DNA of 64,000 bases from Chrysomallon squamiferum (Eukaryota > Animalia > Mollusca): positions 23,064,001 to 23,128,000 of the forward strand of contig CM022679.1 of assembly GCA_012295275.1 (NCBI GenBank), given 5' to 3'. Positions 18,593-64,000 of this stretch are shown here, piece by piece; positions within the stretch are counted from its first letter, which is position 1, and each line of letters opens with the position of its first letter. Both the position numbers and the translations under genes were made by a program. The notes below the pieces were generated by a model that was not told where the DNA came from, ran no database searches, and was given only the letters and a program-made list of their open reading frames with translations.

Positions 18593-19171
18593 ATGTACAT
18601 TAATATCACGTTTATTTCAAGTTCTACACAGGGATGTACTCTTTCACCACATGGTAAAAGTAAATTTAATTTTGTGCTCGTCTTTCTTGTGCGTGTAAAC
18701 ATTATAATTATTTCCAAACGATTTCTTAACATCGTTTTCAGTTATTAGGAGCAGTAAAATAATTCATTATAAAGCGTAGCACATTAGCTTTCGATGCGCA
18801 TGTCAGTCTGCGCTTAGCGACAGGTAGTAAATACCAAGCTGTTGCTAGCGCTTGTGGCCAAACCTTCAACATTAACCTTCTCGATATAAAAACGTTATTA
18901 CCCTGAAGAAAATAACGTGCGTACTTGTGACGTTTCCCTTTAAAATGTTCTGTAAAGGTCTTGAAACTTTGCATTGCATCGATAGAATTTTCATTATGCT
19001 TTCATAATTAGATTTTCAAATATTTAATTGGGTCAGACACGTGTTTAGAAACTGTGTACTTCACTAGGAATAGATCGGAAGTTTCGCGTGAATGGGTGGT
19101 GATGAAATTTTATAACTTCTAAAAAAAATATGAATGATTGAATGAATGGATGAACGAACAAAAGGTACGGA
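18593..19171. repeat. tRNA-cluster spacer, copy 1 (near-identical to 24558..25143)
   Basis: Direct alignment by eye; the 78-aa ORFs at 18738 and 24712 differ by one residue. Confidence 0.9.
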
Positions 19172-19223
19172 TGCGTCGGCCGGGAGTCGAACCCGGATCG
19201 ACTGCTTGGAAGGCAACCATGCT
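19172..19223 (-). pseudogene. 3' part (nt 21-72) of a tRNA-Gly(TCC) gene disrupted by a retrotransposon
   Basis: Identical to 25144..25195; abuts the element's poly(A) tail. Confidence 0.93.
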
Positions 19224-23338: not shown

Positions 23339-23350
23339 TTTTAAAATATT

Positions 23351-24507
23351 CTATATCTTGTCTATATCCTCCCCATACTCATTCATTACCCTGGCAACAC
23401 TTTCTCTCACACTTTTCATGTGTGCTGCTTGTCTCTTTTTTTTTTTTTCTATTTTCTACCAAGCTCCACAGTTTTCTTCTGATGGACGCTTGATCAATCT
23501 CGTTCGACGCTTTGTTTTACTCTGCTTACTATTTTTCTGCTTCGATGGTTCCAGCTTCCTTGTTAGTAATTTTCACTTTGGTGTTTTTATCAGGGGATTT
23601 TCTTGGTTTTCTCCATTTTCTGATTTTTGTTGTTCCTTGTTGATTTCCATTTCTGTTGTATTTATCCTCTGGATACTTTCTGCTTCAATTTCTTTTTCTC
23701 CTTTGATTTTACATTATATTCCATACCATCACTGTCACTGTCGCTGTTTTTTGTTCATCGCTGTCATACTCTGACCAACACTCACATTCATCCTCTTTGT
23801 TTCCACACTTTTCACACAGAAATATGTTCGGGCAGTTTCTAGCAAAATGTCCTTTTGTTTACAGTTATGACACCTTATATTTGGACAGTCTTTCAACAAA
23901 TGATTATCCGCCATGCAGTTGTAACATACTTTTATTTGATTGTCATGTAAAACACGAAAATATTTTATTCCTTCATAAGTCCTAAATTTCATTGAGTATG
24001 GTAAACTTTTTTATTCCGGGTGGAAATTTCACTCTCACGTATCTTGTTCCATCTGCAATTTTTGTCCCTTTGTATAGCCTTCTATAAATTGGTGATAAAA
24101 TTTCTATTTCCATTTGTTTCAATTTTTCTTCAATTTCTTCATCTTCAATGTAGGCAGGCAAGTGCAAAAAGGAAACTACTACAGTTTCAGATTTCAAAAT
24201 TCTCGCCTTTATTTTTTAGACCTTTCAATTCTGTTTCATCAATTTCCGTAATCATTCTCGCTTGTATAATATCTTCTAGTGTTATTTCATAAGAGTCGGA
24301 TTCTTTCGGTACGCACGCTTTTATCACATCACCCACCTGGCCACTTACAAAATCTATCATGTCGCCTGCTGAAATTTTCTTGTTATCTTCTACATTTACA
24401 ATCACAGTGCATTCTTTTTTAAAAACATTTTTTCTCATTCCTTCTTTTTTTAAATTCATATCTTTCATCTTTTCTTCGTAATTTTCTGATTCTTCCGCCC
24501 AAGACAT
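23351..24507 (-). CDS. Retrotransposon ORF1 (gag-like, CCHC zinc knuckles), broken by frameshifts
   Basis: MSWAEESE start; VVVSFLHLPAYIEDEEI, ADGTRYVRVKFP, (K)SLPYSMKF after a 1-nt correction, CYNCMADNHLLKDC and CHNCKQKGHFARNC (1-nt correction); stop TAG ~12 nt before the ORF2 ATG. Confidence 0.85.
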
Positions 24508-24542
24508 AATACTTAGTTTACAAAACAAAATGTGAAACCTTC

Positions 24543-24554
24543 CACCACCGACGC
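24543..24554 (-). pseudogene. 5' part (nt 1-12, GCGTCGGTGGTG) of the disrupted tRNA-Gly(TCC)
   Basis: Exact match to 25204..25215, directly at the element's 5' junction. Confidence 0.8.
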
Positions 24555-24557
24555 CAC

Positions 24558-25143
24558 ATGTACATCATATCACGTTTATTTCAAGTTCTTCACCGTTACA
24601 CCACCGGATGTACTCTTTCACCATATGGTGAAAGTAAATTGAATTTTGTTTTCGTGTTTGTTGTTCGTGTAAACATTATAATTATTTCCAAACGATTTCT
24701 TAACATCGTTTTCAGTTATTAGGAGCAGTAAAATAATTCATTATAAAGCGTAGCACATTAGCTTTCGATGCGCATGTCAGTCTGCGCTTAGCGACAGGTA
24801 GTAAATACCAAGCTGTTGCTAGCGCTTGTGGCCAAACCTTCAACATTAACCTTCTCGATATAAAAACGTTATTACCCCGAAGAAAATAACGTGCGTACTT
24901 GTGACGTTTCCCTTTAAAATGTTCTGTAAAGGTCTTGAAACTTTGCATTGCATCGATAGAATTTTCATTATGCTTTCATAATTAGATTTTCAAATATTTA
25001 ATTGGGTCAGACACGTGTTTAGAAACTGTGTACTTCACTAGGAATAGATCGGAAGTTTCGCGTGAATGGGTGGTGATGAAATTTTATAACTTCTAAAAAA
25101 TATGAATGATTGAATGAATGGATGAACGAACAAAAGGTACGGA
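24558..25143. repeat. tRNA-cluster spacer, copy 2
   Basis: Near-identical to 18593..19171. Confidence 0.9.
25132..25135 (-). terminator. Pol III terminator (T4) 8 nt downstream of the tRNA; equivalents follow the other two copies
   Basis: Minus strand ...CGCA TCCGTACC TTTT G. Confidence 0.6.
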
Positions 25144-25215
25144 TGCGTCGGCCGGGAGTCGAACCCGGATCGACTGCTTGGAAGGCAACCATGCTAACCG
25201 TTACACCACCGACGC
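25144..25215 (-). tRNA. trnG-TCC: tRNA-Gly (anticodon TCC), intact, 72 nt
   Basis: GCGTCGGTGGTGTAACGGTTAGCATGGTTGCCTTCCAAGCAGTCGATCCGGGTTCGACTCCCGGCCGACGCA: acceptor stem GCGTCGG/CCGACGC, A box TGGTGTAACGG, B box GGTTCGACTCC, loop CT-TCC-AA. Confidence 0.97.
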
Positions 25216-26070: not shown

Positions 26071-26270
26071 NNNNNNNNNNNNNNNNNNNNNNNNNNNNNN
26101 NNNNNNNNNNNNNNNNNNNNNNNNNNNNNNNNNNNNNNNNNNNNNNNNNNNNNNNNNNNNNNNNNNNNNNNNNNNNNNNNNNNNNNNNNNNNNNNNNNNN
26201 NNNNNNNNNNNNNNNNNNNNNNNNNNNNNNNNNNNNNNNNNNNNNNNNNNNNNNNNNNNNNNNNNNNNNN
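26071..26270. other. Assembly gap (200 N)
   Basis: N run. Confidence 1.
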
Positions 26271-26557
26271 TGCTGCTATTAGAAAAGTAAGAACAAAGGA
26301 AAAATTTCAAGCTATATACTTAATTAATAAAATTTAGTTAATTAATTATTTTATTAAATACTTGCGACTAAATATTAAACAATTTATTTTTATTTAATTA
26401 ATTTTTGTTTCTTATTTTGTGCTGCTGTTGTCAGTGGTGAAGTTGTTGATACAGTATTGTAGTTGTATAATAAAGTCAGTTAGTTTAAAACGTACCTTTA
26501 CTAGTATCAGGATATTGTGATATTTATTTATTTAAATTGTTGTTGTTGTTGTTGTTA

Positions 26558-26602
<45 letters not shown>

Positions 26603-26904
26603 TAGTGTATTATTATTATTGTTACTGTTACTGTTATTGCTATTATTATTATTATTATTATTTTACATTTCTGTATAAGACGTAACTGCCTTCAGTGAAC
26701 TGGAGTTGTTTTCTGTTATCATATTTTATTATTGACTCAGGACAATCATGTCTACGAATTTTTAATTACACATGTTCATGAGAAACAGAATATATTACAG
26801 CATTGTCTAGTAAGACAGTCTCTTGCAAATTTACGGGAAACAAAGGTTTACGAGATTTAGATACAGATATACATGCAAGACCTGACAGTACAGAACACAC
26901 ATTA

Positions 26905-31611: not shown

Positions 31612-33604
31612 TATGTTTGAGCTGTGCTTTACAGAAATAATGTGATTAGGAATTTGATAAACATTTAAAAAAAAGTTTTCTGTATCTAGTAATTTATACC
31701 TGTAAATATATATTTTTTAAATGTATGAAACTGATTTTAACATCACTTCTTTGTTTTCGTTTTCAAAGCTAATAAGGAAGCTTTTTGAACTAGTAATTAG
31801 GTTTTAACGTGTTTTACTATCTTCAGATAATAGGTAAAACGACTTCTTTTTATATTTAAATCAAGCGACAATTTTATATCTCCATACTTCTTCAGTATCG
31901 TTTTTAATAATTATTATGAGTAAACATTGCAAGTGTTTAGACAAATAATTAAAACGATTAGCATTCTTCGACTAATATTATAAAATATTTCCGTGCTCTT
32001 TCTTTCTTCTGTGTAACTGAAATTTGTAAGGCCCAAATAAATAAGCCAGCAAATAAACAAACAAATACAAATTAAAAAGATTTGGCGCTGAGATTATGAG
32101 CAATTCAAGGGTTTGCCAAGTTTATTTATATCATTAGTACGTAGTGCCAGCAATTTTTTAAGATATGAATAAGTTTGATCTGTGCTTTACAGAAATAACG
32201 TGATTAGAAATTTAGGTAAATTGATAAACATTATCGTTTTTAATAATAATTATGAGTACACATAATAAGTTTTTAGACAAATATTTAAAATTATTAGCTT
32301 TCTTCAGCTAACGTTATAAAATATTTTCGTGTCATTCTTCTTCTTTTTTTTTGAAACCAAAACTTGTATGGACGAAAATATTTCCTGGAACGTTCGAAAA
32401 CATAATTATTTACTTTTCAGTGTAATGGTAACTTTTATAATGCAGCATAATGCTACGTTTCTTGTTTGAAACTGATTAAATCCTATTTACTAAAAAAGAA
32501 AGTTTTTGTTGTTGTTGTTGTTGTTGTTGTTTTATATATTTATTGATCTTTTGTTATTATTATTTCTTGTTTTGTATGTTGTGGTTGTTTTTCTTTCTCT
32601 TTTCTCTGTAGCTGTTGATGAATTTAAAGAATCGAACGGCAGTATCGGGTTTATTATTATTATTACTATTTTTTATTTTTTTATTTTCATTATCATAGTA
32701 CATGAGAATAGTTGTTAACATCGAAATAGTTGATAATATTAAAATATTATACATCGAGCAAAACAAGGTAAGTTTTTTGATGAGTTATGATTTCCAGTAA
32801 CTTTAAGGTTCTTGCAAGGTTTCACTTAAGTTTGTTTGTAGCTTGGTCCACAGTTCAGGGGTGAGCAGTGTGTAAAAATTAATCCACCAAGTTTATTAAG
32901 TTAGTGGGGACGAAGAAAGAAAGAAAGAGAGAAGAAAAAGAGAAAAAGAAAAGAATAAGAAGAAAAAATCCAGTAGATAGAAGAAGGGTGAGAAGAAAGA
33001 GAAGCTGAAAAGGGGGAGGGGAATTCAAAGGGGGACGATAATGTGAATACAGAAATATTTCGAGAGGGGAGGGGGAGGTAGGCAGTTATCCCAAGAATAG
33101 AAGAAACCCAGTGTCTTAACCGCCCAAACACCACTGACCAAACGTCCTCGTATCTAATGACCGTGTTGTCGGCTGCCAAAGTTTTACAGAACTGAATGTC
33201 TACCTTGTAGCTGTACGAATAAATTATTTATTAAAATTCTCTTTAATTTCCACATCACAACTTCTAGTGTTAGTCGCTCAAGATCAAATCCTCAAAAGTC
33301 TTTATACAGTAAATATTACTTTATTTCTTGAGGTTAACAATCAATATAGAATCAGTTTCGGTAGAAATTTAACACGTTCCAGTCTTTTATTAATAATTAT
33401 ACTAAAATTAAATTTTTTATTAATTCAGAAACAGTTAAAGTAGATGACAGAGTGAAAGACAGAGTCACAAACAGTGAAGGAATACAGAACCTTCGATCTA
33501 TTTATAGAACAATCTCGTAAGTAACACGGATTTTTTTCTGATATTAAGCTGTGTTTCTTATTTATCTGTGTTGAGAAAAGTGTAGGTTTACTGACACATT
33601 GAAG

Positions 33605-33639
33605 GACTACGATGGCATACCTCTCGAATTTCATGGAAG
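33605..33639 (+). other. 35-nt exon-like module (ATG GCA TAC...GAA G|gtatgt), possible first coding exon of IAP paralogue A; duplicated at 35895
   Basis: Good donor; 33605-33880 aligns with 35895-36140. Confidence 0.4.
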
Positions 33640-33873
33640 GTATGTAATTAGAATGTTGTACGTTTACTAACACATCGTATAGCCCACTATCAGAATATCA
33701 CAAAATAATGCGAACATAAAAGTACTGAAAAAAATACATCCAGCAAAATAATATTTTAAATAGATTAACTTTAGCTGAACGGGACTTTGAAATGTTGCTG
33801 GATCATATAGAAATTCGGATTAGTCAGAAGAATAAAAAAAATATAAATATTTTATTTGATTTTATTCGCATAG

Positions 33874-33952
33874 CTGATGAGTTCCTTGTATCTAAGAAAA
33901 AAGAGTCGCGTACTTAGTGAAACAACAAGAAATACAAAATTTTCAACTCGAG
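33874..33952 (+). pseudogene. 79-nt exon-like unit upstream of IAP-A (one base off frame)
   Basis: TAG|CTGATGAG...CTCGAG|GT; paralogous to 34367..34445; removing one A from an A-run gives an open 26-codon phase 1-1 exon. Confidence 0.4.
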
Positions 33953-34269
33953 GTTTATTGTAGTTTTATTTCAGTACAATTTCTTCTTTTTATTATTATT
34001 ACTGTTATTGTTATTGTTATTATTATTGTTGTCATTATCATCATCATCATCATTATTATTGATATTATTATTATTGTTGTCATTATTATCATCATCATTA
34101 TTATTATTATTGATATTATTATTATTATTATTACTGTTATTGTTATTGTTATTGTTGTCATTATCATCATCATCATTATTATTATTATTATTGATATTAT
34201 TATTATTGTTGTCATTATTATCAGCATCATTATTATTATTATTATTGATATTATTATTATTATTATTGA

Positions 34270-34302
<33 letters not shown>

Positions 34303-34366
34303 TGATGTCTGAGGAATTCAGATGATATAAAAATTCAAAATATTTTATTTTATTTTGTTCGCACAG

Positions 34367-34445
34367 TTGATGAATCAGTTGTTTCTGAAGGAAGAAGTGG
34401 CGTGCTTAGTGAAAATAATAAGAACCACAGAACTTGCATCTGGAG
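34367..34445 (+). pseudogene. Second 79-nt exon-like unit upstream of IAP-A
   Basis: CAG|TTGATGAA...CTGGAG|GTATAT; a fragment of the same unit recurs at 56669..56714. Confidence 0.4.
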
Positions 34446-34904
34446 GTATATTCTAGTTTTATTCTATTACATTTTTTTTTTTTTTTTTTATTTATTAAAG
34501 TACTTCCGCATGACAGTAGTTATTAACTACATTTGGTATACACTGCTAATGAATATTTATAATATATTTTTGTAACAAAGTGATTTTCTCACTTCTTCGT
34601 TTCGTACTTCAGTAAAAATTTACTTTGTGATAAGCGTAAAACTGTCGAAGTCCTATTTAGCAACGATTTCTCACTTGAACAGTTTCAATTTTTCTCTGTT
34701 GCCTGGGTTTTTTTTTTTTGTTCAGCAGGGCCCTGTTTAGGTTTAGTTTTAAAACTGACAGTAAATGATTTATTCAATATTAACCTTTGTCTTTTCTCAA
34801 TTTCTCATAATTCAGAAGCCGCAATAGCTGATAGAAATGAAATAGAATCCTCAATAGTTGATATAAAGCAATCGGAAGCCGCAACTGTTGATATAAACCA
34901 GTAA

Positions 34905-35714
34905 ATGAGTCAGAAGCCGCAAATTGAAGGAAATGAAACAGATGATGAAATTGTTGATGCAAATGAATCAGATGATGGAATAACCGATGGAAATGAAAGA
35001 CAAGCCGGAAGTGTTAATGGAGATGAACCAGAAGCTGCAAGTATTGATGGAAATAATTCACAAGCTGTAGGAATTGCTGCCACTGTCAGATACAGTAGGG
35101 AGAAGGACCGATTTAAATTTAACTTAAAATCTGGTCTAAACCGATCTTGGTCAAGTCGTCTTGCAGCTGCTGGATTCTACTTCACTGGGACTGGTGATCG
35201 CGTTGTCTGCTTCAGCTGTGGTAAGAGCCATGATCAGTGGAGACGTGGAGATGATCCAATGGCAGTTCACAGACAAATCTCACCACGCTGCAGATTTGTC
35301 CTGGAAGAGGAAGAAAATGAACCCATGACGGTAAGTTAAAATGCTGAGAAGATAGTACAATAATTTCTGATTAGATGTCAGTTCAGTGTTACCAGTTTTG
35401 GAATCTGCTAGTCAGAGTTTTGTGAGCGCTGGTGATGTTGTATTTAGTGGTTCTGATGAAAGTTCTTCACAGCTTAGTGTCAGTAATTTAACATTTTATA
35501 TTCTTTTGATAATAAGCCATTTTGATACTCTTTTGAAATTATTTGACAATTCACCAGACATGTGAAGGGAGACAATTTTGTCGTTTTGATACAAGCAATG
35601 AATAAAAATGAAGATTTTTAGCTCTATCACGAAATTATTAACCTTGTAAAAAACCATTAGTTTTATATTTTGTATTGCTAGGTTTTTGTGACATTATTAT
35701 TATTATTATTATTA

Positions 35715-35752
<38 letters not shown>

Positions 35753-36155
35753 GTTATTATTATTATTGTTGTTGTTGTTGTTTTATAACTACTACTACTA
35801 CTACTAATAATAGTATTAGAAATAGTAGTAGTGGAATTATTGTTGTTATTGTTGTTGTTATTACTTTTCCAAATATATAATTAATATTTTGTAGGACTAC
35901 GATGGCATACAGGCTGATCTGCATGGAAGGTATGTTATTAGAAAATTGTAAGTTTACTAACACATCGCATGGCCCACTATCAGAATATAACAAAATAATG
36001 TGAACATAAAAACAGTGAATAATTTACATCCAGCAAAATAATATTTTAAATAGATTAACGTTAGAGGAACGGGATTTTGAAATGTTGCCGGATCATACAG
36101 AAATCCGGAATAGTCTCACGATTTTATTCGCATAGTTGATGAGTAACGTACATTG

Positions 36156-36195
<40 letters not shown>

Positions 36196-36654
36196 GCTGT
36201 TGTTGTTGTTGTTGTTGTTGTTGTTGATATTGTTGTTGTTATTATTAGATTCATAAAAGGTAGTAAAGAGTCAAATTACTTTTATGATAGTCTACAAAAT
36301 ATTTGTTTCAATCTTTAGGTGTAGCAAAGTATGCACATTATTATTATGTTCTTGTTGTTTTTATGTGTTGTCGTTTTTTGTTGTTGTTGTTGTTGTTGTT
36401 TTTTTGTTGTTGTTTTTTTTTGTTTGTTTTCTTTACCTAATTGTTTCAAAGTCTGTGCATTATAAGGTATTACAAAACTATTGTTTTTATGATTTAACAG
36501 ATGGAAATGCATTGTATGTAAAGACAAGCGAGTCACAATCGTTTTCCTGCCCTGTGAACACGTTTGCTGCTGTGACGATTGTGCGTCCAGACAGCGACGT
36601 TGCCCAGATTGTGGAAGGATAATCCAGTCAACTCGTCCGACTGTCCTCTTTTAA
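34905..36654 (+). CDS. IAP paralogue A (BIR + RING): join(34905..35330,35895..35929,36501..36654); possibly a pseudogene at its 5' end
   Basis: BIR: LAAAGFYFTGTGDRVVCFSC-x16-H-x6-C. A 35-nt phase 0-2 linker exon (DYDGIQADLHGR) follows. RING exon: CIVCKDKRVTIVFLPCEHVCCCDDCASRQRRCPDC...VLF*. The exon acceptor is at 34815, but an in-frame TAA precedes the ATG at 34905. Confidence 0.8.
35554..35615 (+). pseudogene. Remnant of the second-BIR exon 3' end inside an IAP-A intron
   Basis: cagacatgtgaagggagacaattttgtcg..atacaagcaatgaataaaaatgaag matches 59856..59914. Confidence 0.75.
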
Positions 36655-44835: not shown

Positions 44836-44981
44836 ATCTAGCTCATGGACTTTACTGATTTTAGTGACGTCATGGGAAAAAGTTGTAAACCAGATAAACT
44901 AATAATCAAAGAAAAACAAACAAACATTGAAAATGATTAAATGCTACTTTAAAAGATTTAAAAAAATAAATAAATAAAACT

Positions 44982-45723
44982 GTGAAAATTAAATTGAATC
45001 TGATTTATATATTTATTGATCGTTTGTTATTATTTCTTTTGTCTGATTTTTTTCTCTTTTTTTTGTATTGTTTTTTTTCTCAATGGCTGTTGATGAATTT
45101 AAAGAATCGAATGGCAGTATAGAGTTTATTATTTATTTATTTATTTATATTTTTTTTTACCCATTATATCATTGTACATGAGAGTAATTAATAACATCAA
45201 AATAGCTGATAATATTAAAATATTATACATCGAGGAAAATAAGGTAAGTTTTTTTGATGAGTTATGATTTCCAGTGACTTTAAAGTCCTTGCAAGGTTTC
45301 ACTTAAGTTTGTTTGTAGCTTGGTCCACAGTTCAGGGATAAGCAGTGTCCAGTTTATATATCTGCAGATGTTTTCTATCAGTTTAAAGCATATGCAGACC
45401 AATTTTGTTTCTGAAACATCTAGAATGGTTTATGATGCATCCGAGAAAATCCTCAGATGAAATTCTTCTGGTATCTTATAATTTAGATATTTTTCTTTTT
45501 ATTTCTTTATGAGAAGGAATCAGTGAAACTTTTCACCAGTTTTCACAGAGCGATAACAAAAGCTGCTGTTAGACGCAATATTAAAAGTTCACAGTTTTAC
45601 AAGTTCTATCAGTACAGTGACGTTTTAACAAGATGATTTTCAACCAGTACAGTGACGTTTTAACAAGATGATTTTCAACCAGTACAGTGACATTTTAACA
45701 AGATGATTTTCAACCAGTACAGT

Positions 45724-45819
<96 letters not shown>

Positions 45820-48674
45820 TGTATTCAGAATATTTTACAGAATCAGTTTTTGTTATTAAAATAGCTAATAATAATACACAAATACTGGTACTCACAGTTA
45901 TATCATAGACTGAATGGTAACCAAGGGTATCTGTGATAAAGTTAAGATAATTTCCTTCTTAAATTAATTAATTAAATAATTAAAACCTGATCAGTTTTGT
46001 TAATGGCAGAGTTGGTTGTATGTATATTATCTAGGAAAACCAAAGATTCCAAACTGATCGTTATTCAAGAGAGGATTCAAATAATATAAAATACAACAGC
46101 TCGAATATAAATTAATATCAGTGTATTTCTACTGTAAAGAAAGTAATATATTTTAACATTATCATATTTTATACGTGGCAAATTAGTCCACTGAGTATAA
46201 CGTACATGAAAATGTCACAAATCTTTATATTTGTGTATCAGAAAATATTCCTAGTTTAATGCAGAGGGAATTAAAGTAACAAAAATAGAATTAATATTAT
46301 AATAGCAACATAAAACCATTTTTTTTTTTTTTTAATTCAAATGTGAGTTGGTCTTATTAAGGAATAGGACATAAAAGTTACTACATGACAAAGATTATCC
46401 TGCAAACAATATACCTAGATGTAGCATGAATACAATTTAGTTAAACTTTATTAGAATAAAATACAAACAAACACACACAATAAATAAATAAATAAATAAA
46501 TAAATAAGGTGTATGGCCTAGGTTATGAGAAAGCAGTTCAGTGCTTTGGCAAGTTTATTTATATCTGTATGTACAGGTAATTTCCGTCACGTGACAGTTA
46601 CCTCGTAATGACGACCCACATACATTTTGTTATCAGTTTCTAATACTGGATCAGTTTGAGTTTTGCTTTTCAGAAATAACGTGATTAGGAATTTAGGTAA
46701 GTTGATAAACATTTCGATAACAGTTTTCTTTGTATAGTAATTTATGTTTGTAATTAAATACTTATGTCTGGAGATAAATCTATATTTTTTTAAATGAATG
46801 AAAATCATTTTAACATTACTTCCTTGTTTTCTCAGCTCATAACGAACCTTTCCTAGTCGATTTTATTGAATTCAGTGGCTCATGTGAAACATGCATAGAC
46901 CTTGGATTTAGTTTTAAAAAAAGGTTTAATAATAAAACTAGTATTCTAAATAATCGTTACGTTATAAACAGATTTACTGTATTCACGTAGTAGAGAAAAC
47001 GACTTTCTTTTGTGTTTGTTACGTGCGACAACGAGAAGGTCACAAATATTCAGCGCTTTGTGTCGCCAACTTAATATCGTTTTAAATAATAGTTGAGTGT
47101 ATAAAATAAATGTTAAGACAAATATTTAAAATTATTAGCTTTCTTCAGATAACGTTATAAAATATTTCCGTGTCATTCTTTTTTTCTTTTTAAGTTTCTG
47201 AAACCGAAACTTGTGTGCACAAAAATATTTCCTGGAACGTTTTAAAACATAATTATTTACTTTTCAGTGCAATGGTAACTTTTATAAAGCAGCATAATGC
47301 TACATTTCTTGTTTACAAATGATTAAATACTACTTATTAAAAAAAGGAAGATTTAAAAAAAAAAAAAAAATGTGAAGATTAAATTGCATTTGATTTATAT
47401 ATTTATTGATCGTTTGTTATTATTATTTCTTTTGTCTGATTTTTTTATCTTTTTTTTGTATTGTTTTTTCTCAATGGCTGTTGATGAATTTAAAGAATCG
47501 AATGGCAGTATCGAGTTTATTATTTATTTATTTATTTATATTTTTTTTACCCATTATATCATTGTACATGAGAGTAATTAATAACATCAAAATAGCTGAT
47601 AATATTAAAATATTATACATCGAGCAAAACAAGGTAAGTTTTTTGATGAGTTATGATTTCCAGTAACTTTAAGGTTCTTGCAAGGTTTCACTTAAGTTTG
47701 TTTGTAGCTTGGTCCACAGTTCAGGGGTAAGCAGTGTCCAGTTTATATACCTCCAGATGTTTTCTATCAGTTTAAAGCATATGCAGACCAATTTTGTTTC
47801 TGAAACATCTAGAATGGTTTATGATGCATCCGAGAAATACGTCAGATGAAATTCTACTGGTATCTTAGAATTTAGATATATATTTTTTATTTGTTTATTT
47901 ATTTATTTATGAGAAGGAATCAGTGAAACTTTTCAGCACTTTTCACAGAGCGATAACAAAAGCTGCTGTTAGACACAATATGAAACGTTCACAGTTTTAC
48001 AAGTTTACTCTGTGTATTCAGAATATTTTACAGAATCAGTTTTTGTTATTAAAATAGCTAATAATAATACACGAATACTGGTACACACAGTTATATCATA
48101 GACTGAATAGTAACCAAGGGCAACTGTGATAAAGATAAGATAATTTCCTTCTTAAATTAATTAATTAATTAATTAAAACCTGATCAGTTTTGTTAATGGC
48201 AGAGTTGGTTTTATGTATATTATCTAGGAAAATCCAAAGATTCCAAACTGATCGTTATTCAAGAGAGGATTCAAATAATATAAAATACAACAGCTCGAAT
48301 ATAAATTAATATCAGTGTATTTCTACTGTAACGAAAGTAATATATTTTAACATTATCATATTTTATACGTGGCAAATTAGTCCACTGAGTATAACGTACA
48401 TGAAAATGTCACAAATCTTTATATTTGTGTATCAGAAAATATTCCTAGTTTAATGCAGAGGGAATTAAAGTAACAAAAATAGAATTAATATTATAATAGC
48501 AACATAAAACAATTTTTTATTTTATTTTATTCAAATGTGAGTTGGTCTTATTAAGGAATAGGACATAAAAGTTACTACATGACAAAGATTATCCTGCAAA
48601 CAATATACCTAGATGTAGCATGAATAAAATTTAGTTAAACTTTATTAGAATAAAATACAAACAAACACACAAAA

Positions 48675-48705
<31 letters not shown>

Positions 48706-50190
48706 GGTGTATGGCCTAGGTTATGAGAAAGCAGTTCAGTGCTTTGGCAAGTTTATTTATATCTGTATGTACAGGTAATTTCCGTCACGTGACAGTTACC
48801 TCGTAATGACGACCCTCATCCATTTTGTTATCAGTTTCTAATACTCGATCAGTTTGAGTTTTGCTTTTCAGAAATAACGTGATTAGGAATTTAGGTAAGT
48901 TGATAAACATTTCGATAACAGTTTTCTTTGTATAGTAATTTATGTTTGTAATTAAATACTTATGTCTGGAGATAAATCTATATTTTTTTAAATGAATGAA
49001 AATCATTTTAACATTACTTCCTTGTTTTCTCAGCTCATAACGAACCTTTTCTAGTCGATTTTATTGAATTCAGTGGCTCATGTGAAACATGCATAGACCT
49101 TGGATTTAGTTTTAAAAAAAGGTTTAATAATAAAACTAGTATTCTAAATAATGGTTACATTATAACCTGATTTACTATATTCACGTAGTAGAGAAAACGA
49201 CTTTCTTTTGTATTTGTTACGTGCGACAACGAGAAGGTCACAAATATTCAGCGCTTTGTGTCGCCAACTTAATATCGTTTTAAATAATAGTTGAGTGTAT
49301 AAAATAAATGTTAAGACAAATATTTAAAATTATTAGCTTTCTTCAGCTAACGTTATAAAATATTTCCGTGTCATTCTTTTTTTCTTTTTAAGTTTCTGAA
49401 ACCGAAACTTGTGTGCACAAAAATATTTCCTGGAACGTTTTAAAACATAATTATTTACTTTTCAGTGCAATGGTAACTTTTATAAAGCAGCATAATGCTA
49501 CGTTTCTTGTTTACAAATGATTAAATACTACTTATTAAAAAAAGGAAGATTTAAAAAAAAAAAAAAAAATGTGAAGATTAAATTGCATTTGATTTATATA
49601 TTTATTGATCGTTTGTTATTATTATTTCTCAGTCTGATTTTTTGTCTTTTTTTTTTTTGTATTGTTTTTTCTCAATGGCTGTTGATGAATTTAAAGAATC
49701 GAATGGCAGTATCGAGTTTATTATTTATTTATTTATTTATTTATTTTTCCCCCATTATATCATTGTACATGAGAGTAATTAATAACATCAAAATAGCTGA
49801 TAATATTAAAATATTATACATCGAGCAAAACAATGTAAGTTTTTTTGATGAGTTATGATTTCCAGTAACTTTAAGGTTCTTGCAAGGTTTCACTTGTTTG
49901 TTTGTAGCTTGGTCCACAGTTCAGGGGTGAGCAGTGTCCAGTTTATATACCTCCAGATGTTTTCTATCAGTTTAAAGCATATGCAGACCAATTTTGTTTC
50001 TGAAACATCTAGAATGATTTATGATGCATTCGAGAAAATCGTCAGATGAAATTCTTCTGGTATCTTAGAATTTAGATATTTTTCTTTTTATTTCTTTATT
50101 TCTTGATGAGAAGGAATCAGTGAAACTTTTCACCAGTTTTCACAGCGCGGTAACAAAAGCTGCTGTTAGACACAATATAAAAAATTCACA
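44982..50190. repeat. Tandem ~2.2-2.4 kb duplication, ~2.3 copies (starts ~44982, 47372, 49571), built from IAP-flank modules
   Basis: Near-identical ORFs at 46587 and 48785 (offset 2198); modules shared with 32160-32870 and 52510-53190. Confidence 0.9.
45610..45816. repeat. 35-bp minisatellite x3.3 followed by (CT)n, present in only one of the tandem units
   Basis: Unit CAGTACAGTGACGTTTTAACAAGATGATTTTCAAC; absent at the paralogous site ~48005. Confidence 0.9.
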
Positions 50191-51394
50191 ATTTATGATT
50201 CTAGTTAAAAATGTGAAAATTAATTAATTAAATCATTTATTTGTTTAGTTCATTTTTATTCATTCACTAATGTATTTTGTTGAATGCGTTATATTTTATT
50301 CAGCAAAAATATAGTAAATTTTATTTATATTACAACTAAATACGTCATTTAAACTTTCTTGTACAGTACATACATCTGTGTTATGCTTGAATAAACCAAC
50401 CCAGATTTAAATCAGCATTTTCTAAATGTATTTAAAATAAAATCAATCCCATTCAGATTACATTATCTTCCTCTCCATATACGTAAAGTGTGTTTCTGAT
50501 TTTTTCTTTTTTCTGCAAACCTGTTACTAAATCGATTATTATGTAATACCAGAAAGTGAAAATATATTCGGACCTGAGTGATCCAGACTGTTTCTTTCTT
50601 AGTAAATTTGGTCGAAGGTTTTAGTCAGTTGACCTCTACTATACTGGACAGAAAAAACCACACACAACATGCAGCCATCTTTAAAGATGACCGCCTAAAG
50701 AGTAGAAAGCTAATAATCTGAAATATCCATCAACCGAGTTCGGACTCTTCAGAACTAACTAAAACAAAAAACTTGAAATTTTCATTAAATTGTTACACAA
50801 ACTCAAAGCTTACAGATCTTGCTCATGGACTATACTGATTTTAATAAAGTTATGAAATATCCAAGTGAAAGAAAAATGATTTAATAAATTATCTGAAAAT
50901 GATAGGGATTTCTGAAAACTCCATGTTTGAGAATTTTACAGTAAAATATACAAGATAAATCAGTTAGCTAAGAATAAAATGTAAAAACAAACTAATAAAG
51001 AAAGAAAGAAACAAAATTTCAGTGAAACTTTTCAGAAATTTTCACAGGGCGGTAACAAAAGCTGCTGTTAGACGCAATATGAAAAGTTCACAGTTTTGCA
51101 AGTGGACTTCGTATATTCAGAATATTTTACAGATTCAGTTTTTGTTATTGTGCCACTATTTAGATCAGTTTTATTCGTGTCAGAGTTGGTTTGATGTATA
51201 ATATCTAGGAAAATCCAAAAATTCCAAATTGACCGCTATTTAATAGCGAGAGTATTCAAATAAATTAAAATATAACATCACTTGTCGACTGTTCTGTCTC
51301 ATCATTCTCACGTCTGAAGATAAATATAAGAAATTCTCTGAAACACGGTTTACCTGAACAAATCTTTAACAATAAATACAATAAAATATAACAG

Positions 51395-52974: not shown

Positions 52975-54141
52975 ACTTCTATTACTACTACTACTATTTT
53001 TTTTCTCATTATATCATGGTTTATAGGAATAGTTATTAACATGAAAACAGCTGATATTAAAATTCACATCGAGCAAAATAAGGTTAGATTGCTGTCCTCG
53101 GCAGTTTTGTTGATGAATTACGATTTCCAGTAACTTTAAGAACTTTAGGTTGTTTGGAGCTTGGTCCACAGGTCAGAGGTAAGCAATGTTGTAATTATAA
53201 ATCCACTTAGTTTATTAAGTTAGTGGAGGGGTGGAATGAAGACAGAAAGAAGGAAGAAAAGGAGAGAGATAAAAAAATCAGAACAAAGAAAAAGAAGGGA
53301 AAAGAAAAAAAATCAGAAATAAAAGTTACTGCCACAGACAGCAATATTTCAAGAGGGGAGGGCGAGGGAGGCTGCTATCCCTAGAACTGACGAAATCCCG
53401 AGCCTTAACCGCCCAAACACCACTGACAAAACGTCCACATACCTAGTGACCATTTTGTCGGCTGCCAAAGTTTTACTGGTGAATGTCTACCTTGCAGCTT
53501 TACGAATAAATTGTCTGTTAAAAATATCTCTAATTTCAACATCAGAACTTCTAGTGTTAGTAGCTCAAGATCAAATCCTCAAAAGTCTTTATATAAAGTA
53601 AATATTACTTTATTTCTTGAGGTTAACAATCAATACATAGAATCAGTTTCTGTAGAAATTTAACACGTTCCAGTGTTGTATTAATAATTATACTAAATTT
53701 AAATTTTATTTAAATTTACAGTTAAAGTACATAACAGAGTGAAATACAGAGTCACAAACATTGAAGGAATACAGAAACCTGAATCTATTTATAGAACAAC
53801 CACGTAAGTAATATGGACTTTTTTCTGATATTAAACTTTATTACGTTAGTTTTACGATTGATAACATAACAGTTTTATTTTACCTCTGGGATTATCTCTG
53901 TCTAGAAATAACAAATAGTGATGTTAAGAAATATTAATTTGTGCGTCGTTTTTTCGCAAACACAAAATCTCTTTTCAAGATTCACCAGATAAATCATGAA
54001 TATAATTGATCCATTTAAATAAAATGAGTGAAAACTGCATTCCATATTTCTACCGTGTAAACAATAACAATATGTCGAACCATACTCCACACACGTTAAT
54101 TCTAAAATGTTTATTTTAATTTCATATTTCTCAAATTACAG

Positions 54142-54192
54142 AGCCAAGTGACAACCAAGTCGAAATGACAGAGAGGAGCATTCAGTCGTCAG
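54142..54192 (+). CDS. IAP-B 51-nt microexon E1: (E)PSDNQVEMTERSIQSS; contains a candidate in-frame ATG
   Basis: TTACAG| ... TCAG|GTAATT; phase 1-1, open. Confidence 0.7.
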
Positions 54193-55448
54193 GTAATTTT
54201 ACACCTTGGAAAACGTAACTAATAAATTGCTTCTCACAAAATCAAATGTTTATTTTAAATTTTTCTCGGTTTCGTAAACAAGTATATACATATAGATATA
54301 TAACTATTTAGCAATACCTATGAAACAAAGAAATCATTGCCTACTTAAACGGACTGTGCATCCAATAAATTAGAATGGGAATAAAATATTGATATCTCGT
54401 AATTTCAGTACCTTACTGTATCCAGCAATGATTTTTACGTGACTCACATCTTTCAATAAAGATACGAACATCAACATCTATAATATATTTCATTTAGTAG
54501 AATAACTGACAGTCATTTCAAATTATTGCAAATATGACAAAGGTCTCCTTCACATCCGTGTTTAAAAATTTATCACAAAAGTTAACCTTGCAAATTTATT
54601 AATATCCGGGTTTCGTATTCAAATAGTTTGTATGTCTGTGACTTTGCGCATTTTTCTAATGTAAATGACTGTTAACTGAATTATATTCTTATAAGCGTAA
54701 GCTCATATTAATTTTACACATTTTATAATTTATTACTACTTTCTTAACGATTAAATGCAGTTCAATCATCCTGTTACAAGATATGTACAATTTAAAAAAA
54801 AATAGCGTTAACAAAGTTTATTAATTTCATGAATTTTGAAAGATAATGAAAGAACACACAATATAGTAATAAATAAATATACTGTTACATGATTAAACCT
54901 TGTTAGTTTAGATTGAAACTTTATATAACAAGTAAACCTCGTTTTATTAAAAAGTAATTTGCATATTCACTCTTCGAGATGATGTCTGACTTGAAAGGAT
55001 TCGTAACCTTTTAACTTTTTTGAAATCATTTTATTTATTTACTTAATTATTTATTTATTTGTCACTTTTATTATTATTATTGAAAGGACCTGTGTGTCGC
55101 ACAATTTGATATATCTGTAAACTCTGTTTCTGAAAAAGTTATCTACAGACACGGAGAAGCGCCTTTAGTATTTTGCATCGTACGTGAAACACGCACATAT
55201 CTAACGAAAACGTTGAATTTCCTACTTAGAAGTCGTCTGTGGATGCTTAGAACAATTCATTCTTACAACTCATAATCTCAATTCTAGACTGACGCGACAA
55301 ATCATGAATATAATTGATCAATTAAAATGAAATGAATGAAAAGTTCATCGAATTTTTCTAATGTAAATTCCTAATAGTGTGACGAAGCACACTTCACAGA
55401 TGTTAATTTTAAAATGTTTATTTTCATTTCATATTTCTCAACTTACAG

Positions 55449-55499
55449 AGCTATATCCTTTTGATTTCGGAACCAGAAAGAAGATCAATCGCCGATCAG
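55449..55499 (+). CDS. IAP-B 51-nt microexon E2: (E)LYPFDFGTRKKINRRS
   Basis: TTACAG| ... TCAG|GTATTT; phase 1-1, open. Confidence 0.7.
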
Positions 55500-56989
55500 G
55501 TATTTTTACACCTTTTTAAAAATTATTCGTTTTTTACTTTATTTTAGATTCATAAGAAAAGAGTACGTATGTATATATATATATATTTAACAGGACATGT
55601 GAAAGAAAGAAACAATTGCCTAGGTACACGGTCTATACATCCAATAATTCAGCATGGTAATAAAATATTAATATCTCGTAATTTCAGTAGCTTAGAGGAC
55701 CCTGCCCTGATTAGTACGTGACTCATACCTTTCAATAAAGATACGAACATCAACATCTGTAGTGTATTTCAGTTAATAGAATGTTTGTGTCATTTCAAAT
55801 TATTGCAAGTCATACAAAATGTCTCCTTCACTTCCTTGTTTCAAAATTTATCACAAACGTTAACCTTGCAATTTCATTAATATCCCGATTTCGTTTTCAA
55901 ATAGTTTGAGTGTCTGTGACTTTGTGCATTTTTCTAATTTAAATGACTACTATATGAATTATATTCTTATAATCGTAAGCTCATATTAATTTTACATCTT
56001 TTATTTGGCGTTACCACTTCTTTTCTTCTGAAATTACAATTCTAGCCTAGGAACTAACGGAAATTCTGCCACAGAAAATTTGTTCATAATTTAATACAGT
56101 TCAATCATCCTATTACAAGATATGTACAATTTAAAAAAATAATATCGTTCACAAAGTTTGTAAATTTCAGGAGTTTTGAAAGATAATGAAAGAACACACA
56201 ATATATTAATAAATAAATATACTGTTAGATGGTTAAACCTTGTTAGTTTAATTTCAACCTTTAGGTAACAACTGACCCTCGTTTTATTAAAAAGTAATTG
56301 GTATATTCGACGTTGGAAATGATATCTGACTTTAAAGGATTCGTAACCTTTAAACTTTTTTGAAAGGACCTGTGTGTCGCACCATTTCATATATCTGTAA
56401 ACTCTGTTACTCACGAAGTTATCTGCAGACACGGAGAAGCGCCTTTAGTATTTTGTATACTAGGTGAAACACGCACATATCTAACGAAAACGTTCAATTT
56501 TTATCTCGAAGTCGTCTGTGGATGCTTAGAACAATTCATTCTTACAACTCGAAATCTCAATTCTAGACTGACGCGACAAATCATGAATATACTTGATCCA
56601 TTTAAATAAAATGAGTGAAAACTTCATCGAATTTTTCTAATGTGAAATCATAACAGTGTGACGACCTTAGTGGTGTACTTAGTGAAATAAGAACAACAGA
56701 ACTTGCATCTGGAGGTATATTCTAGGTTTATTCTATTACATTTTATTTATTTATTTATTTATCACTTTTATTATTATTATTATTGAAAGGATCCGTATAT
56801 CACACCATTTGATAAATCTGTAAACTCTGTTTCTCACAAAGTTATTTGCAGACACGAAGAAACGCTATTTGTATTTTGCATCGTAAGTGAAACATATTTG
56901 AATGTAAAATCAAAACAGTGTGACGAGTCACACTTCACAGATGTTAATTTTAAAATGTTTATTTTAATTTCATATTTCTCAAATTACAG

Positions 56990-57040
56990 AGCCAATTGAT
57001 AAGCAGGTGGAAATCATAGAGGAGGACATTGATCTATCAG
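56990..57040 (+). CDS. IAP-B 51-nt microexon E3: (E)PIDKQVEIIEEDIDLS
   Basis: TTACAG| ... TCAG|GTATTT; phase 1-1, open. Confidence 0.7.
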
Positions 57041-57984
57041 GTATTTTTACACCTTCTTAAACGTAACTGATAAAGGGATTGTCATAAAATTAATCGTTTT
57101 TTTCTTTATTTTAGATTCATAAGAAAAGAGTACGTATGTATATATATATATTTAACAGTACCTGTGAAAGAAAGAAACAATTGCCTAGGTACTCGGTCTA
57201 TATATCCAATAATTCATCATGGTAATAAAATATTGATATCTCGTAATTTCAGTAGCTTACAGGACCCTGCCCTGATTATTACGTAACTCATACCTTTCAA
57301 TAAAGATACGAACATCAACATCTGTAGTGTATTTCAGTTAATAGAATGTTTGTGTCATTTCAAATTATTGCAAGTCATACAAAATGTCTCCTTCACTTCC
57401 TTGTTTCAAAATTTATCACAAACGTTAACCTTGCAATTTCATTAATATCCTGGTTTCGTTTTCAAATAGTTTGTATGTCTGTGACTTTGTGCATTTTTCT
57501 AATTTAAATGACTGCTATATGAACTATATTCTTATAATCGTAAGCTCATATTAATTTTACAACTTTTATTTTGCGTTACCACTTTTTTTCTTCTGAAATT
57601 ACAATTCTAGCCTATGAACTAACGGAAATTCTGCCACAGAAAATTTGTTTCGGATTAAATACAGTTGAACCATCCTATTACTTGATATGTACAATTCAAA
57701 AAAAAAAAAAAAAAAAAATTTGGCGTTCACAAAGTCTGTAAATTTCAGGATTTTTGAAAGATAATGAAAGAACACACAATATAGTAATAAATAAATATAC
57801 TGTTACATGATTAAACCTTGCTAGTTTAGTTTGAAACTTTATATAACAAGTAAACCTCGTTTTATTAAAAAGTAATTTGCATATTCACTCTTCGAAATGA
57901 TGTCTGACTTGAAAGGATTCGTAACTATTTAACTGTTTTGAAATTATTTTATTTATTTACTTAATTATTTATTTATTTATTCAT

Positions 57985-58019
<35 letters not shown>

Positions 58020-58433
58020 TATTTATTTATTTATTTATTTATTTATTTGTCACTTTTATTATTATTATTGAAAGGAGCTGTGTGTCGCACAATTTGATAT
58101 ATCTGTAAACTCTGTTTCTGAAAACGTTATCTGCAGACACGGAGAAGCGCCTTTAGTATTCTGTATCCTAGCTGAAACACGCACATATCTAACGAAAACG
58201 TTCAATTTTCTACTGAGAAGTCGTCTGTGGATGCTTAGAACAATTCATTCTTACAACTCATAATCTCAATTCTAGACTGACGCGACAAATCATGAATTAA
58301 TTGATCCATTTAAATAAAGTGAGTGAAAACTTCATCGAATATTTCTAATGTAAAATCATAACAGTGTGACGAAGTACACTTCACAGATGTTTTGTAAAAT
58401 GTTTATTTTAATTTACTATTTTTCAAATTACAG

Positions 58434-58484
58434 GGATACTTGATAACCCGCTGGAAGTGAGAGAGAATAGGTGGGAGCGATCAG
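58434..58484 (+). CDS. IAP-B 51-nt microexon E4: (G)ILDNPLEVRENRWERS
   Basis: TTACAG| ... TCAG|GTATTT; phase 1-1, open; splices in frame to the BIR exon at 59103. Confidence 0.7.
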
Positions 58485-58737
58485 GTATTTTTACACCTTG
58501 TCAAACGTAACTGATAAAGTGATTCTCATAAAAGTAATATTTTTTTAAATTTAATTACTTTTTTTAGTAAGAGTAAAACTGTCAAAGTTTTATTTAGAAA
58601 CGACGTCTCACTTGAAGAGTTTCAATTTTTCCCTCTTGTCGGCTTTTCGTTCAACTTCGTCTCTCTGTACTTTCAAATTTAATTTTTGCTCGAAGCAACA
58701 GCATACCTTACTTTCGTGTGTGTGTGCCACTCTGAGC

Positions 58738-58863
58738 AGGTGTAAATCTTACAGGAAATGTATACAATTATGAAGAAGCTCATTTACGTGTACACAGACA
58801 AAACACGTGATAGCACGTCCTGCTTGTTCTAATTGGATACAGGGAGACATCCCTTTCGTAGAC
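58738..58863 (+). pseudogene. Decayed, deleted duplicate of the BIR 3'-half exon and its acceptor
   Basis: acaggaaatgtatacaattatgaa...tacacag.caaaacacgtgatagcacgtcctgc...aattggatacagggagaca aligns to 59695-59822. Confidence 0.75.
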
Positions 58864-59102
58864 TGTTCCCACGATGGGATTTCATTAAATACATTTAAGT
58901 ACGAAACGAAATATCATACAAAAAAAAAATGATCATAATAATAATAATAATTAATAAATAAATAAATAAATAAATAAATAATAACATCTAAAAATTGGTG
59001 AAACAACATACTTTAATTTTAATTCATAATTGATCCGTGTTTTTATTTTACAATGTAATTTCTAAATCTTTTCCTTTTGTTGTTGTTTTTCTTCTACATC
59101 AG

Positions 59103-60725
59103 CCCCAGGATTGCATACACCACGTCACAGCGACTACGTCGACGTACAAAGACGTATTTCGTCTTTTGAACAGCGGTGGCCTCATTCTGACAACCAGTCT
59201 CCGACAGAGCTGGCAGAAGCCGGTTTCTTCTTCTCTGGTTAGAGTTACTTTCACTTAATAAGAAATCTTCACAGTTTTATAATCATTTGAAAATCTTCTT
59301 GGATTGCTCTATTTTTTTAAATTCATTTTAAATTATTTGTATTTTAATATTCATTTGATAATGACTCTTGAAATTATTGACATTTTACTAGTGAATTAAA
59401 ACTTTCAGAATTTTAAGATTGATTTTGAATTTGGACATTTTAAAAGTCTTCTGAAAAGTTTGCCATAATAATAGTCATTTATAATCTTTTATTGTTGAAG
59501 AGTGAAATAATGTTTTCTGTATTTTAATATTCATTTTGACTTTGGACATTCTGATAGACATTTGATATCTCTGAACGATCGATAGAACAACATAGCTTAA
59601 TTTTGTGTATGTGTGTGTGTTTCTATGTGTGTGTAGATGTATGTGTGTATGTGTTTATGTGCCAGTATTAGTGGGTGTAAATACTTGTTTCTCACAGGAA
59701 ATGTATACAATTATGAACAAGCATCTTTATGTATACACAGGAGAAACAGGTGATAGCACGACCTGCTTTTACTGTGGCGGAGAACTTAGAAATTGGAGGC
59801 AGGGAGACAACCCTTACGTGGAACACGCCAGATGGTTTCCACTATGCAGTTTCATCAGACATGTGAAGGGAGACAATTTTGTCGATTTGGTACAAGAAAT
59901 GGATGAAAATGAAGAGCAGGTAAATAGCTGACATTTTTAACTTTACCACGAAATTATTAAACTTGTATAAAGATGTGTAGCGGTGTTTTCACTAGGAATC
60001 AGAAATTTATTATTACTATTGTTGATCTTGTTGTTATTATTACTTTGGAAAATATTTAATTAATGTTTCAAAATTTGTTTTAGATTAACTATAAGCAAGT
60101 GATGGAGATTCTAAATGACTGTCCACCCAAATTTGATATTCTCGTAACTGAAAATTATGAAGGTAAATGATAATAAAATAACATAAAAGTGCATAATAGA
60201 TTTCTAACATAAAATGATTGCAATACAATGACTCCCTTTATTATGAGGTTAAGTTTTGAGATTATAGATATATATATTTTTCTATTTTATTTTCTGGAGT
60301 AAGGAGTGCAATAGCAATGACACTTCAGAAAAGGATGATGAGAAATGAAGCATTAACAAGAATATCAATTTCTAAGCGACATTTTGTAACAACATCAAAC
60401 TTACTCTCTTTGTTGTCTGTTACTTGAAAATTAATAAATTATTATTATTATGTTGGGTTTTTTGTTTGTTGTTTTTTGTTGTTGTATTTTTTTTTTACAT
60501 AATTGTTTCAAAGTTTGTGCATTATAAAGTATTACAAAACTATTATTTTTATTCTTTTTATGATTTAACAGACGGAAATGCACCGTATGTCTTGACAAGA
60601 GAGTCACAATAGTTTTCCTGCCCTGTGAACACGTTTGCTGCTGTGCAGATTGTGCGTTCAGACTGCGAAGATGCCCACATTGTGGAGAGACAATCCGGTC
60701 AACTCGTTGGGTTGTCCTCTTTTAA
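59103..60725 (+). CDS. IAP paralogue B core (BIR + RING): exons 59103..59237, 59741..59919, 60084..60162, 60572..60725
   Basis: BIR: PRHSDYVDVQRRISSFEQRWPHSDNQSPTELAEAGFFFSG|ETGDSTTCFYC-x16-H-x6-C (EHARWFPLC). RING: CTVCLDKRVTIVFLPCEHVCCCADCAFRLRRCPHC...VLF*. The phase 1 end at 60162 does not match the phase 2 RING exon, so a linker exon is missing or decayed (candidate ~60300-60370). Confidence 0.82.
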
Positions 60726-63418: not shown

Positions 63419-63707
63419 TGCTGCTATTAGAAAAGTAAGAACAAAGGAAAAAATTTCAAGCTATATACTTAATTAATAAAATTTAGTTAATTAATTATTT
63501 TATTAAATACTTGCGACTAAATATTAAACAATTTATTTTTATTTAATTAATTTTTGTTTCTTATTTTTGTGCTGCTGTTGTCGGTGGTGAAGTTGTTGAT
63601 ACAGTATTGTAGTTGTATAATAAAGTCAGTTAGTTTAAAACGTACCTTTACTAGTATCAGGATATTGTGATATTTATTTATTTAAATTGTTGTTGTTGTT
63701 GTTGTTA

Positions 63708-63755
<48 letters not shown>

Positions 63756-64000
63756 TAGTGTATTATTATTATTATTGTTACTGTTACTGTTATTGCTATT
63801 ATTATTATTATTATTATTATTTTACATTTCTGTATAAGACGTAACTGCCTTCGAGTGAACTGGAGTTGTTTTTCTGTTATCATATTTTATTATTGACTCA
63901 GGACAATCATGTCTACGAATTTTTAATTACACATGTTCATGAGAAACAGAATATATTACAGCATTGTCTAGTAAGACAGTCTCTTGCAAATTTACGGGAA
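63419..64000 (+). repeat. Near-identical copy of 26271..~26840 (offset 37,148 bp)
   Basis: tgctgctattagaaaagtaagaacaaagg...ctcttgcaaatttacgggaa; only a few 1-nt and microsatellite-length differences. Confidence 0.95.

Follow-up and report, generated by a model that had tools for sequence, protein, structure and literature searches.

A 64,000-nt stretch of the genome of the mollusc Chrysomallon squamiferum (GenBank assembly GCA_012295275.1, contig CM022679.1, positions 23,064,001 to 23,128,000 of the forward strand; hereafter the window, with all coordinates counted from its first letter) contains a gene of the inhibitor of apoptosis (IAP) family, here called gene B, that carries four tandem exons of exactly 51 nt in front of its BIR domain. 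Gene B lies on the forward (+) strand. It passes from an 82-nt exon, E0 (53722-53803, AG/GT ends, with an in-frame TGA at its codon 7), through the four cassettes E1 (54142-54192), E2 (55449-55499), E3 (56990-57040) and E4 (58434-58484, the final cassette ahead of the BIR) to the two exons that encode the domain, namely BIR exon a (59103-59237, 135 nt, phase 1-1; Pfam BIR, E 7.7e-06) and BIR exon b (59741-59919, 179 nt; Pfam BIR, E 5.6e-13). Both halves score above the Pfam cut-off, and exon b holds the motif C-x2-C-x16-H-x6-C at 59764-59847. Downstream lie a post-BIR linker exon of 79 nt and phase 0-1, placed by frame analysis (60084-60162), and an intact RING exon (60572-60725; Pfam zf-C3HC4_3, E 8.7e-13). 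A second IAP paralogue, gene A, occupies ~33435-36654.

Each of E1-E4 is preceded by TTACAG, ends in TCAG/GTA (the slash marking the exon boundary) and is open in the phase 1-1 frame, in full agreement with an earlier reading of the sequence alone (the original prediction), which had placed the four exons at these positions. The cassettes sit within repeated intron units (53959-58546, by self-alignment), of which a unit profile finds exactly four copies in the window. The prediction had described these as four near-identical units of 1.3-1.5 kb; this holds for E2/E3, with ~4% flank divergence, but the flanks of E1 are 15-17% diverged, and the units comprise three full copies and a truncated fourth that has ~60 nt of downstream intron in common with the others, with cassettes spaced 1307, 1541 and 1444 nt apart. 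None of the 16 cassette subsets meets a stop between E0 codon 53761 and the end of the exon that follows the BIR exons. To that extent any subset can splice in frame, as had been proposed, but in the window allele an AUG ahead of the BIR and in frame with it is found only in E1, and thus only in E1-containing subsets; E1 therefore acts as a start exon. E0 itself has one fully open frame, but this runs into a stop in E1, and we discarded it. The alternative reading frames of the cassettes have stops in three and in all four of the exons, and the probabilities that a frame stays open on shuffling multiply to ~0.013 across the four, a value to be read with the copies not being independent.

The 17-residue segments that the cassettes contribute are strikingly unlike one another. 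Net charges are -2 for E1, +4 for E2, -5 for E3 and -1 for E4, which bears out the contrast between a basic E2 and an acidic E3 that had been noted. E1, E3 and E4 have Asp, Glu and Glu in common at codons 3, 7 and 10, and E2, the most divergent cassette, shares with the others just the final Ser, the only residue invariant in all four. No LRR or TPR pattern is visible in the 16-residue cassette peptides, and the window holds no inverted spare cassettes. The array accounts for 204 nt of the ~640 nt up to the linker exon, so that micro-exons are not the majority of the coding region.

Exons accelerated over introns are known from toxin genes, and the same relation is found between the cassettes and their flanks. 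Exon identities, out of 51 positions, are 26 for E1/E2, 35 for E1/E3, 29 for E1/E4, 27 for E2/E3, 23 for E2/E4 and 31 for E3/E4 (the three pairs counted by hand in the prediction, E1/E3, E2/E3 and E3/E4, were right), which corresponds to a divergence of 31-55%. Flank divergence is 4-17% (E1/E2 0.17, E1/E3 0.17, E1/E4 0.15, E2/E3 0.04, E2/E4 0.15, E3/E4 0.09), and the exon exceeds the flank in six of six pairs (Fisher P 0.021 to 6e-17). The pattern is sharpest for E2/E3, which lie in a single duplicated block of ~1 kb with near-identical sequence to either side of the exon: the flanks differ at 2 of 60 positions upstream and 18 of 474 aligned positions downstream, and divergence jumps at the exon edges, from 0-3 differences per 25 positions directly outside to 24 of 50 inside. 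We also considered frameshifted alignment as a source of the exon divergence and rejected it, since gaps give no gain for E2/E3, E3/E4 and E1/E4 and add only 4-8 points in the remaining three pairs. The intron relationships are mosaic, in that E2 groups with E4 by its far-upstream flank and with E3 by its downstream one.

Direct tests indicate that the exon differences are concentrated at amino-acid-changing sites. By counting, nonsynonymous and synonymous differences (Nd and Sd) are 22.5 and 1.5 for E2/E3 (pN 0.61 vs pS 0.14), 18.3 and 0.67 for E3/E4 (pN 0.49 vs pS 0.06) and 23.2 and 3.8 for E2/E4. Neutral simulations with the same number of differences per pair, at three kappa values, give P 0.0007-0.0023 for E2/E3 and E3/E4 (~0.014 at worst after correction for six pairs) and 0.017-0.039 for E2/E4. 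For the E2/E3/E4 trio, which was picked after the pairwise results and comprises 15 codons, omega = 1 is rejected by a codon likelihood test (P 0.0001-0.0003), with omega at its upper bound; for all four exons the test is borderline (omega 2.7-4.0, P 0.016-0.063 over nine settings). As the data amount to 15-16 codons in four copies, these values speak to the presence of selection and not to the size of omega. Homogenisation of the introns alone does not explain the E2/E3/E4 pattern, because it predicts that synonymous sites should have diverged like the rest of the exon, yet they stay near flank level. The prediction had named gene conversion with dN/dS at or below 1 as a finding that would undo it; dN far exceeds dS in E2/E3/E4, but the E1 pairs are neutral-like. 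We consider it likely that these are real coding cassettes under diversifying selection.

Evidence for splicing comes from five public sequencing runs that cover part of the region (shares 0.06-0.26), as contigs and not reads; X1 to X4 are RNA, all from one study, and X5, whose kind is not on record, behaves like DNA. Two surveys list 15 of 26 and 15 of 38 joints, and the statements on joints below refer to those listed. E0 is joined to E1 in X1 and X4 (53803->54144), E1 to E4 at an exact GT..AG junction in X3 and X4 (54192->58434), and an E3-like exon to the BIR exon in X1 (57029->59118, the intervening letters not being known). BIR exon a is joined to b in X2 and X4 (59236->59740), where loose ends behind 59916 read into an exon of the linker type. 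One 278-nt contig of X4, which ends at the E4 donor, can be read as a 5' exon, E0 and two 51-nt exons. In X4, a loose end of 30 letters ahead of E0 is identical to the letters that precede the GT donors at both 46696 and 48894, which points to a candidate 5' non-coding exon at 48801-48894 (+ strand), its start set by the length of the RNA contig, with a twin copy ending at 46696 and a diverged copy ending at 52553. The candidate exon lies in a tandem repeat of ~2.2-2.4 kb (44931-50194, up to 97% identical), whose units are possible duplicated first exons or promoters. The call for junction data made in the prediction is thereby answered in part, and cassettes of this array type are spliced, in close copies.

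Whether these joints reflect a choice among exons is a separate matter. The RNA copies are other alleles or paralogues, because their letters differ from the window, and in an apparently multi-copy family exon skipping is for that reason inseparable from a change of copy number in the DNA. It could be that selection on the cassettes is real and that there is no alternative splicing, every allele or paralogue using all the cassettes it has and junctions differing with unit number. X5 gives this some substance: it holds 397 contigs over 5.6 kb, 204 of them less than 95% alike, and a group of joints, all with a depth of 55.1, connects the E0 intron with the flank that follows E4, an arrangement that would fit a one-cassette paralogue (the letters between are not known); in addition, X4 cover is sparse over the E2 and E3 units. 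Against it, E1 and E4 map to the window at an 88% threshold and meet in the exact GT..AG joint in two of the four RNA runs, all four cassette donors are weak (GTATTT/GTAATT), and some contigs retain intron sequence at E3 and E4. We regard the absence of any alternative splicing as rather unlikely, and put the case that true exon skipping contributes at slightly better than even. Joints between units in X5 were dropped as proof of copy-number change, since any paralogous unit can split-map across repeats.

The size of the family can also be gauged from X5, in which depth is ~25-65 for most single contigs and 700-2250 over the cassette flanks, with peaks of ~1850-2250 at the exon-upstream flanks and ~1060 over the BIR exon bin; contig depth is not copy number, and we read from these values no more than an indication that related units number in the tens. 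Among the variants listed for an E3-like copy in X5 there are two, both amino-acid-changing, one of which makes an ATG at the position of the E1 ATG.

The architecture invites comparison with Dscam, in which tandem exon duplicates of equal phase form mutually exclusive clusters governed by docking sites. Tandem exons of equal phase are found here as well, but Dscam-style exclusivity across the whole cluster, which had been raised at the outset, does not hold, as E1 and E4 sit in one transcript (X3, X4). A narrower version would keep E1 constitutive and have exactly one of E2, E3 and E4 picked by competing RNA pairings. E2, E3 and E4 are indeed the exons under selection, no two of them occur together in a joint, and an A-rich microsatellite in the last intron (58916-59003, + strand, found as inverted repeats) complements U-rich arms upstream of E2 (55009-55081), E3 (56742-56793) and E4 (~57940-58069). 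This candidate loop-out site, noticed after the fact, is of low complexity and a weak lead. Such arms are microsatellites common in the window (the strict composite motif occurs twice per strand), their arrangement would remove cassettes starting at the 3' end rather than single one out and leaves E1->E4 unexplained, the joints are known in part, and no docking site was found above chance. A putative 5' docking site was equalled by 23 of 40 shuffles, and a short 3' duplex to the donors, matched by 0 of 40 shuffles at first, was later matched by 7 of 150 shuffles and by 6 of 39 other stretches of the window. We hold one-of-three choice to be very improbable.

On balance, we lean somewhat towards reading the locus as a tandem, frame-preserving bank of 51-nt exons before the BIR of a young IAP paralogue, likely to build a variable N-terminal leader that would govern the cutting or degradation of the protein and the agents responsible for it. 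Unequal crossing-over between the repeated introns would cause gain and loss of units, a step we propose because the repeated introns provide substrates and the mosaic flank relationships fit it. Owing to the symmetric phase, any cassette gained or lost would keep the frame, and selection would then act on the 17-residue segments. The number and identity of cassettes would vary between gene copies and by skipping at the weak donors. More speculatively, the leader would be an unstructured degron or protease bait, whose cleavage or modification in infection removes the IAP and frees apoptosis; by analogy with other cell-death regulators this is the role we favour, though we would call it less likely than not. 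An extension of this idea, in which a vent-snail IAP subfamily of tens of copies draws on a genome-wide recombining library of 17-residue cassettes, diversified by selection and assembled through splicing and unequal crossing-over into variable leaders of the degron or protease-bait type, and each IAP is a tunable apoptotic tripwire for enzymes of pathogens or symbionts, strikes us as improbable.

A number of observations weigh against the exon-bank reading. Diversifying selection, upheld by direct test in E2/E3/E4, has no counterpart in E1/E2, E1/E3 and E1/E4, which lack an excess of amino-acid changes (neutral simulation P 0.07-0.87), perhaps because E1 behaves as a start exon; and the strongest likelihood result leans on the trio picked as described above. 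The RING exons of genes A (36501-36654) and B differ at 23 of 154 nt, more than the 3' untranslated regions (11 of 149), and their 12 amino-acid-changing and 3 silent codons are about the unconstrained expectation. In the RNA, no joint uses E2, and there is no E1->E2, E2->E3, E3->E4 or E4->BIR joint; the tables being incomplete and the data contigs, the missing E2 cover is not evidence of absence. In X3, E4 runs on into 144 letters other than the BIR exon, and the X4 copy differs from the window at 4 letters in E0 and 2 at the start of E1. At 53761-53763 the window has TTG where X1 has ATG and X4, X5 and gene A have GTG. Phase 1 at the end of the linker exon does not suit the RING exon, which requires phase 2, and direct linker->RING and BIR exon b->RING joins give stops. 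In gene A, an in-frame stop lies in the large exon before AUG 34905, and X5 holds an E1-like copy with four inserted letters.

The unstable start codon, the RING exon out of frame, the stop in gene A and the four-letter insertion together indicate that some of the gene copies are probably decaying. They also lend weight to an account without selection, in which old exons have drifted, perhaps in a decaying paralogue, and the introns are alike through gene conversion or recent duplication; the mosaic intron relationships and the neutral-like E1 pairs would suit it as well. Such drift is hard to reconcile with pS lying so far below pN in E2/E3 and E3/E4 (P ~0.002), and with length, frame and splice sites kept in four of four exons, whose open frames have the low shuffle product given above. 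We judge it decidedly unlikely, and retain the exon bank as the preferred reading.

The state of the 3' end also bears on what gene B makes. Spliced on directly, the RING exon falls out of frame, and the two candidate bridging exons are weak, so that the label of E3 ligase given in the prediction is unproven; as far as the frames indicate, the gene product may be BIR-only. At the 5' end, the variants at 53761-53763 raise the possibility of an initiation switch between E0 and E1, or of non-AUG initiation. In the last intron, 58716-58825 is a relic duplicate of the acceptor region of BIR exon b (77% to 59651-59768), where paralogue contigs split-map, and a back-joint in X1 (59919->59097, 31 intervening letters) points to an expressed paralogue in which this BIR is repeated in tandem.

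A full-text search of largely open-access literature, judged mostly from listings and from main texts, turned up no microexon array in an IAP gene, in line with the earlier statement that none was known; the words 'IAP' and 'apoptosis' are absent from the text of PMC7736800. In its design the array resembles the micro-exon genes (MEGs) of schistosomes, and the architecture as such is known. MEGs and VAL-6 likewise combine tiny symmetric exons, exon duplication and high dN/dS (here in E2/E3/E4), and in VAL-6 a run of MEG-like exons is coupled to a gene from a different family (PMC4350168). As far as that source describes them, MEGs differ in being mostly micro-exon and in occurring at the interface with the host, in secretions or glands, whereas the present gene has 204 nt of cassettes before a BIR; their alternative splicing yields pools of variants, whereas the E1->E4 and E3-like->BIR joints found here are inseparable from copy-number change. 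In Ectocarpus, ROCO genes with 72-nt LRR exons and NB-ARC-TPR genes share with the array fixed-length exon units and diversifying selection, and exon number varies between recent paralogues amid high gene birth and death (PMC3341825). Their exons encode folded ligand-binding repeats on a conserved scaffold, as that paper presents them, in contrast to cassettes with just a final Ser invariant and with no inverted spares in the window.

Precedents for a leader that controls the fate of a cell-death regulator come from elsewhere. The leaders of insect IAPs contain a degron through which the protein is turned over when baculovirus infects (PMC4966970), DIAP1 is cleaved at Asp20 and then removed through the N-end rule, a pathway suppressed by one virus (PMC5739542), and the linker of NLRP1 is a positively selected protease tripwire (PMC7857732). 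In these and in CARD8, as in gene B, a regulatory N-terminal leader would precede a cell-death regulator, and the positive selection in the NLRP1 linker has its parallel in the signal in the N-terminal E2/E3/E4; the likeness is one of functional analogy. In the sources cited those leaders are not described as repeated cassette exons. If the tripwire idea is true, such IAPs would be invertebrate equivalents, modular in their exons, of the NLRP1/CARD8 sensors and would act through loss of an inhibitor.

Tandem-duplication expansion of IAP genes with modular exons is described in bivalves and gastropods (PMC7831173, PMC8917759, PMC13159474, PMC7895826), including six tandem IAPs with Ka/Ks <1 in the hard clam (PMC7831173) and the IAP family among those expanded in Gigantopelta aegis (PMC7895826). 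The window shows the same general plan: tandem paralogues, a BIR split across two exons with an exon running from phase 0 to phase 1 (or, in the published pattern, 1 or 2) behind it, and a RING in the last exon (PMC7831173). In gene B the BIR exons are of 135 and 179 nt, with the 79-nt exon after them. The microexon array is not described in the portions seen of the work on hard clam, oysters and Metazoa at large. Expansion of molluscan IAPs is well known, and the literature, to the extent consulted, looks at domain counts and reports purifying selection. At the present locus the adaptive signal falls not in the domains but in short exons at the N-terminus, which gene models are prone to overlook, and it singles out specific 17-residue segments as degron or protease-bait candidates. 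The variable front end is likely to have been shaped by an arms race. Should the pattern hold across paralogues, it would offer a testable link between IAP expansion and microbial conflict in chemosymbiotic snails.

Among 150 representatives listed, the IAPs nearest to the BIR exons of the window and to the BIR of gene A are two G. aegis proteins (XP_041379548.1 and XP_041350670.1), both with 75% identity to BIR exon b across 56 residues. Together with the Na/Ca exchanger described below, they make a peltospirid vent snail related to G. aegis the likely origin of the window, in keeping with Chrysomallon. These proteins have two BIRs, of which gene B retains the second and gene A the first. Among the best 120 of 282 matches to a BIR-RING profile, none is nearer than these two and none convincingly matches E1-E4; a word-index search with BIR exon b gave one match among four candidates. 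Nothing in the N-termini of the G. aegis proteins matches E0-E4 significantly, and an apparent likeness of E0 and E4 to them was rejected (shuffle P 0.54 and 0.38 for E0, 0.04 and 0.06 for E4, in 10 tests).

Gene A combines the first-type BIR and the RING with an E0 homologue and a leader made of a 10-residue acidic repeat. No 51-nt cassettes are found in it, its BIR exon b is present only as a relic (35550-35652), and the gene is probably decaying or restructured. It contains a second class of repeated exon-like units, at 33874-33952 and 34367-34445, each of 79 nt and of the form AG...GAG/GT; the 3' half and donor of this unit recur near 56670-56714, in the gene B intron between E2 and E3.

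Three further features lie in the window. A LINE-like element on the - strand (~19448-24564), its endonuclease- and reverse-transcriptase-like frames fragmented and labelled from their translations, is bordered by direct repeats of ~640 nt (18593-19223 and 24558-25195, 96%). An assembly gap of 200 N (26071-26270) is followed at 26271-26839 by a 97.6% copy of the last 580 bases of the window (63419-64000), a possible segmental duplication or assembly overlap. A Na/Ca exchanger gene at 1856-14561 encodes a protein whose first 231 residues are 83% identical to that of G. aegis and at most 69% identical to the other 119 matches listed.

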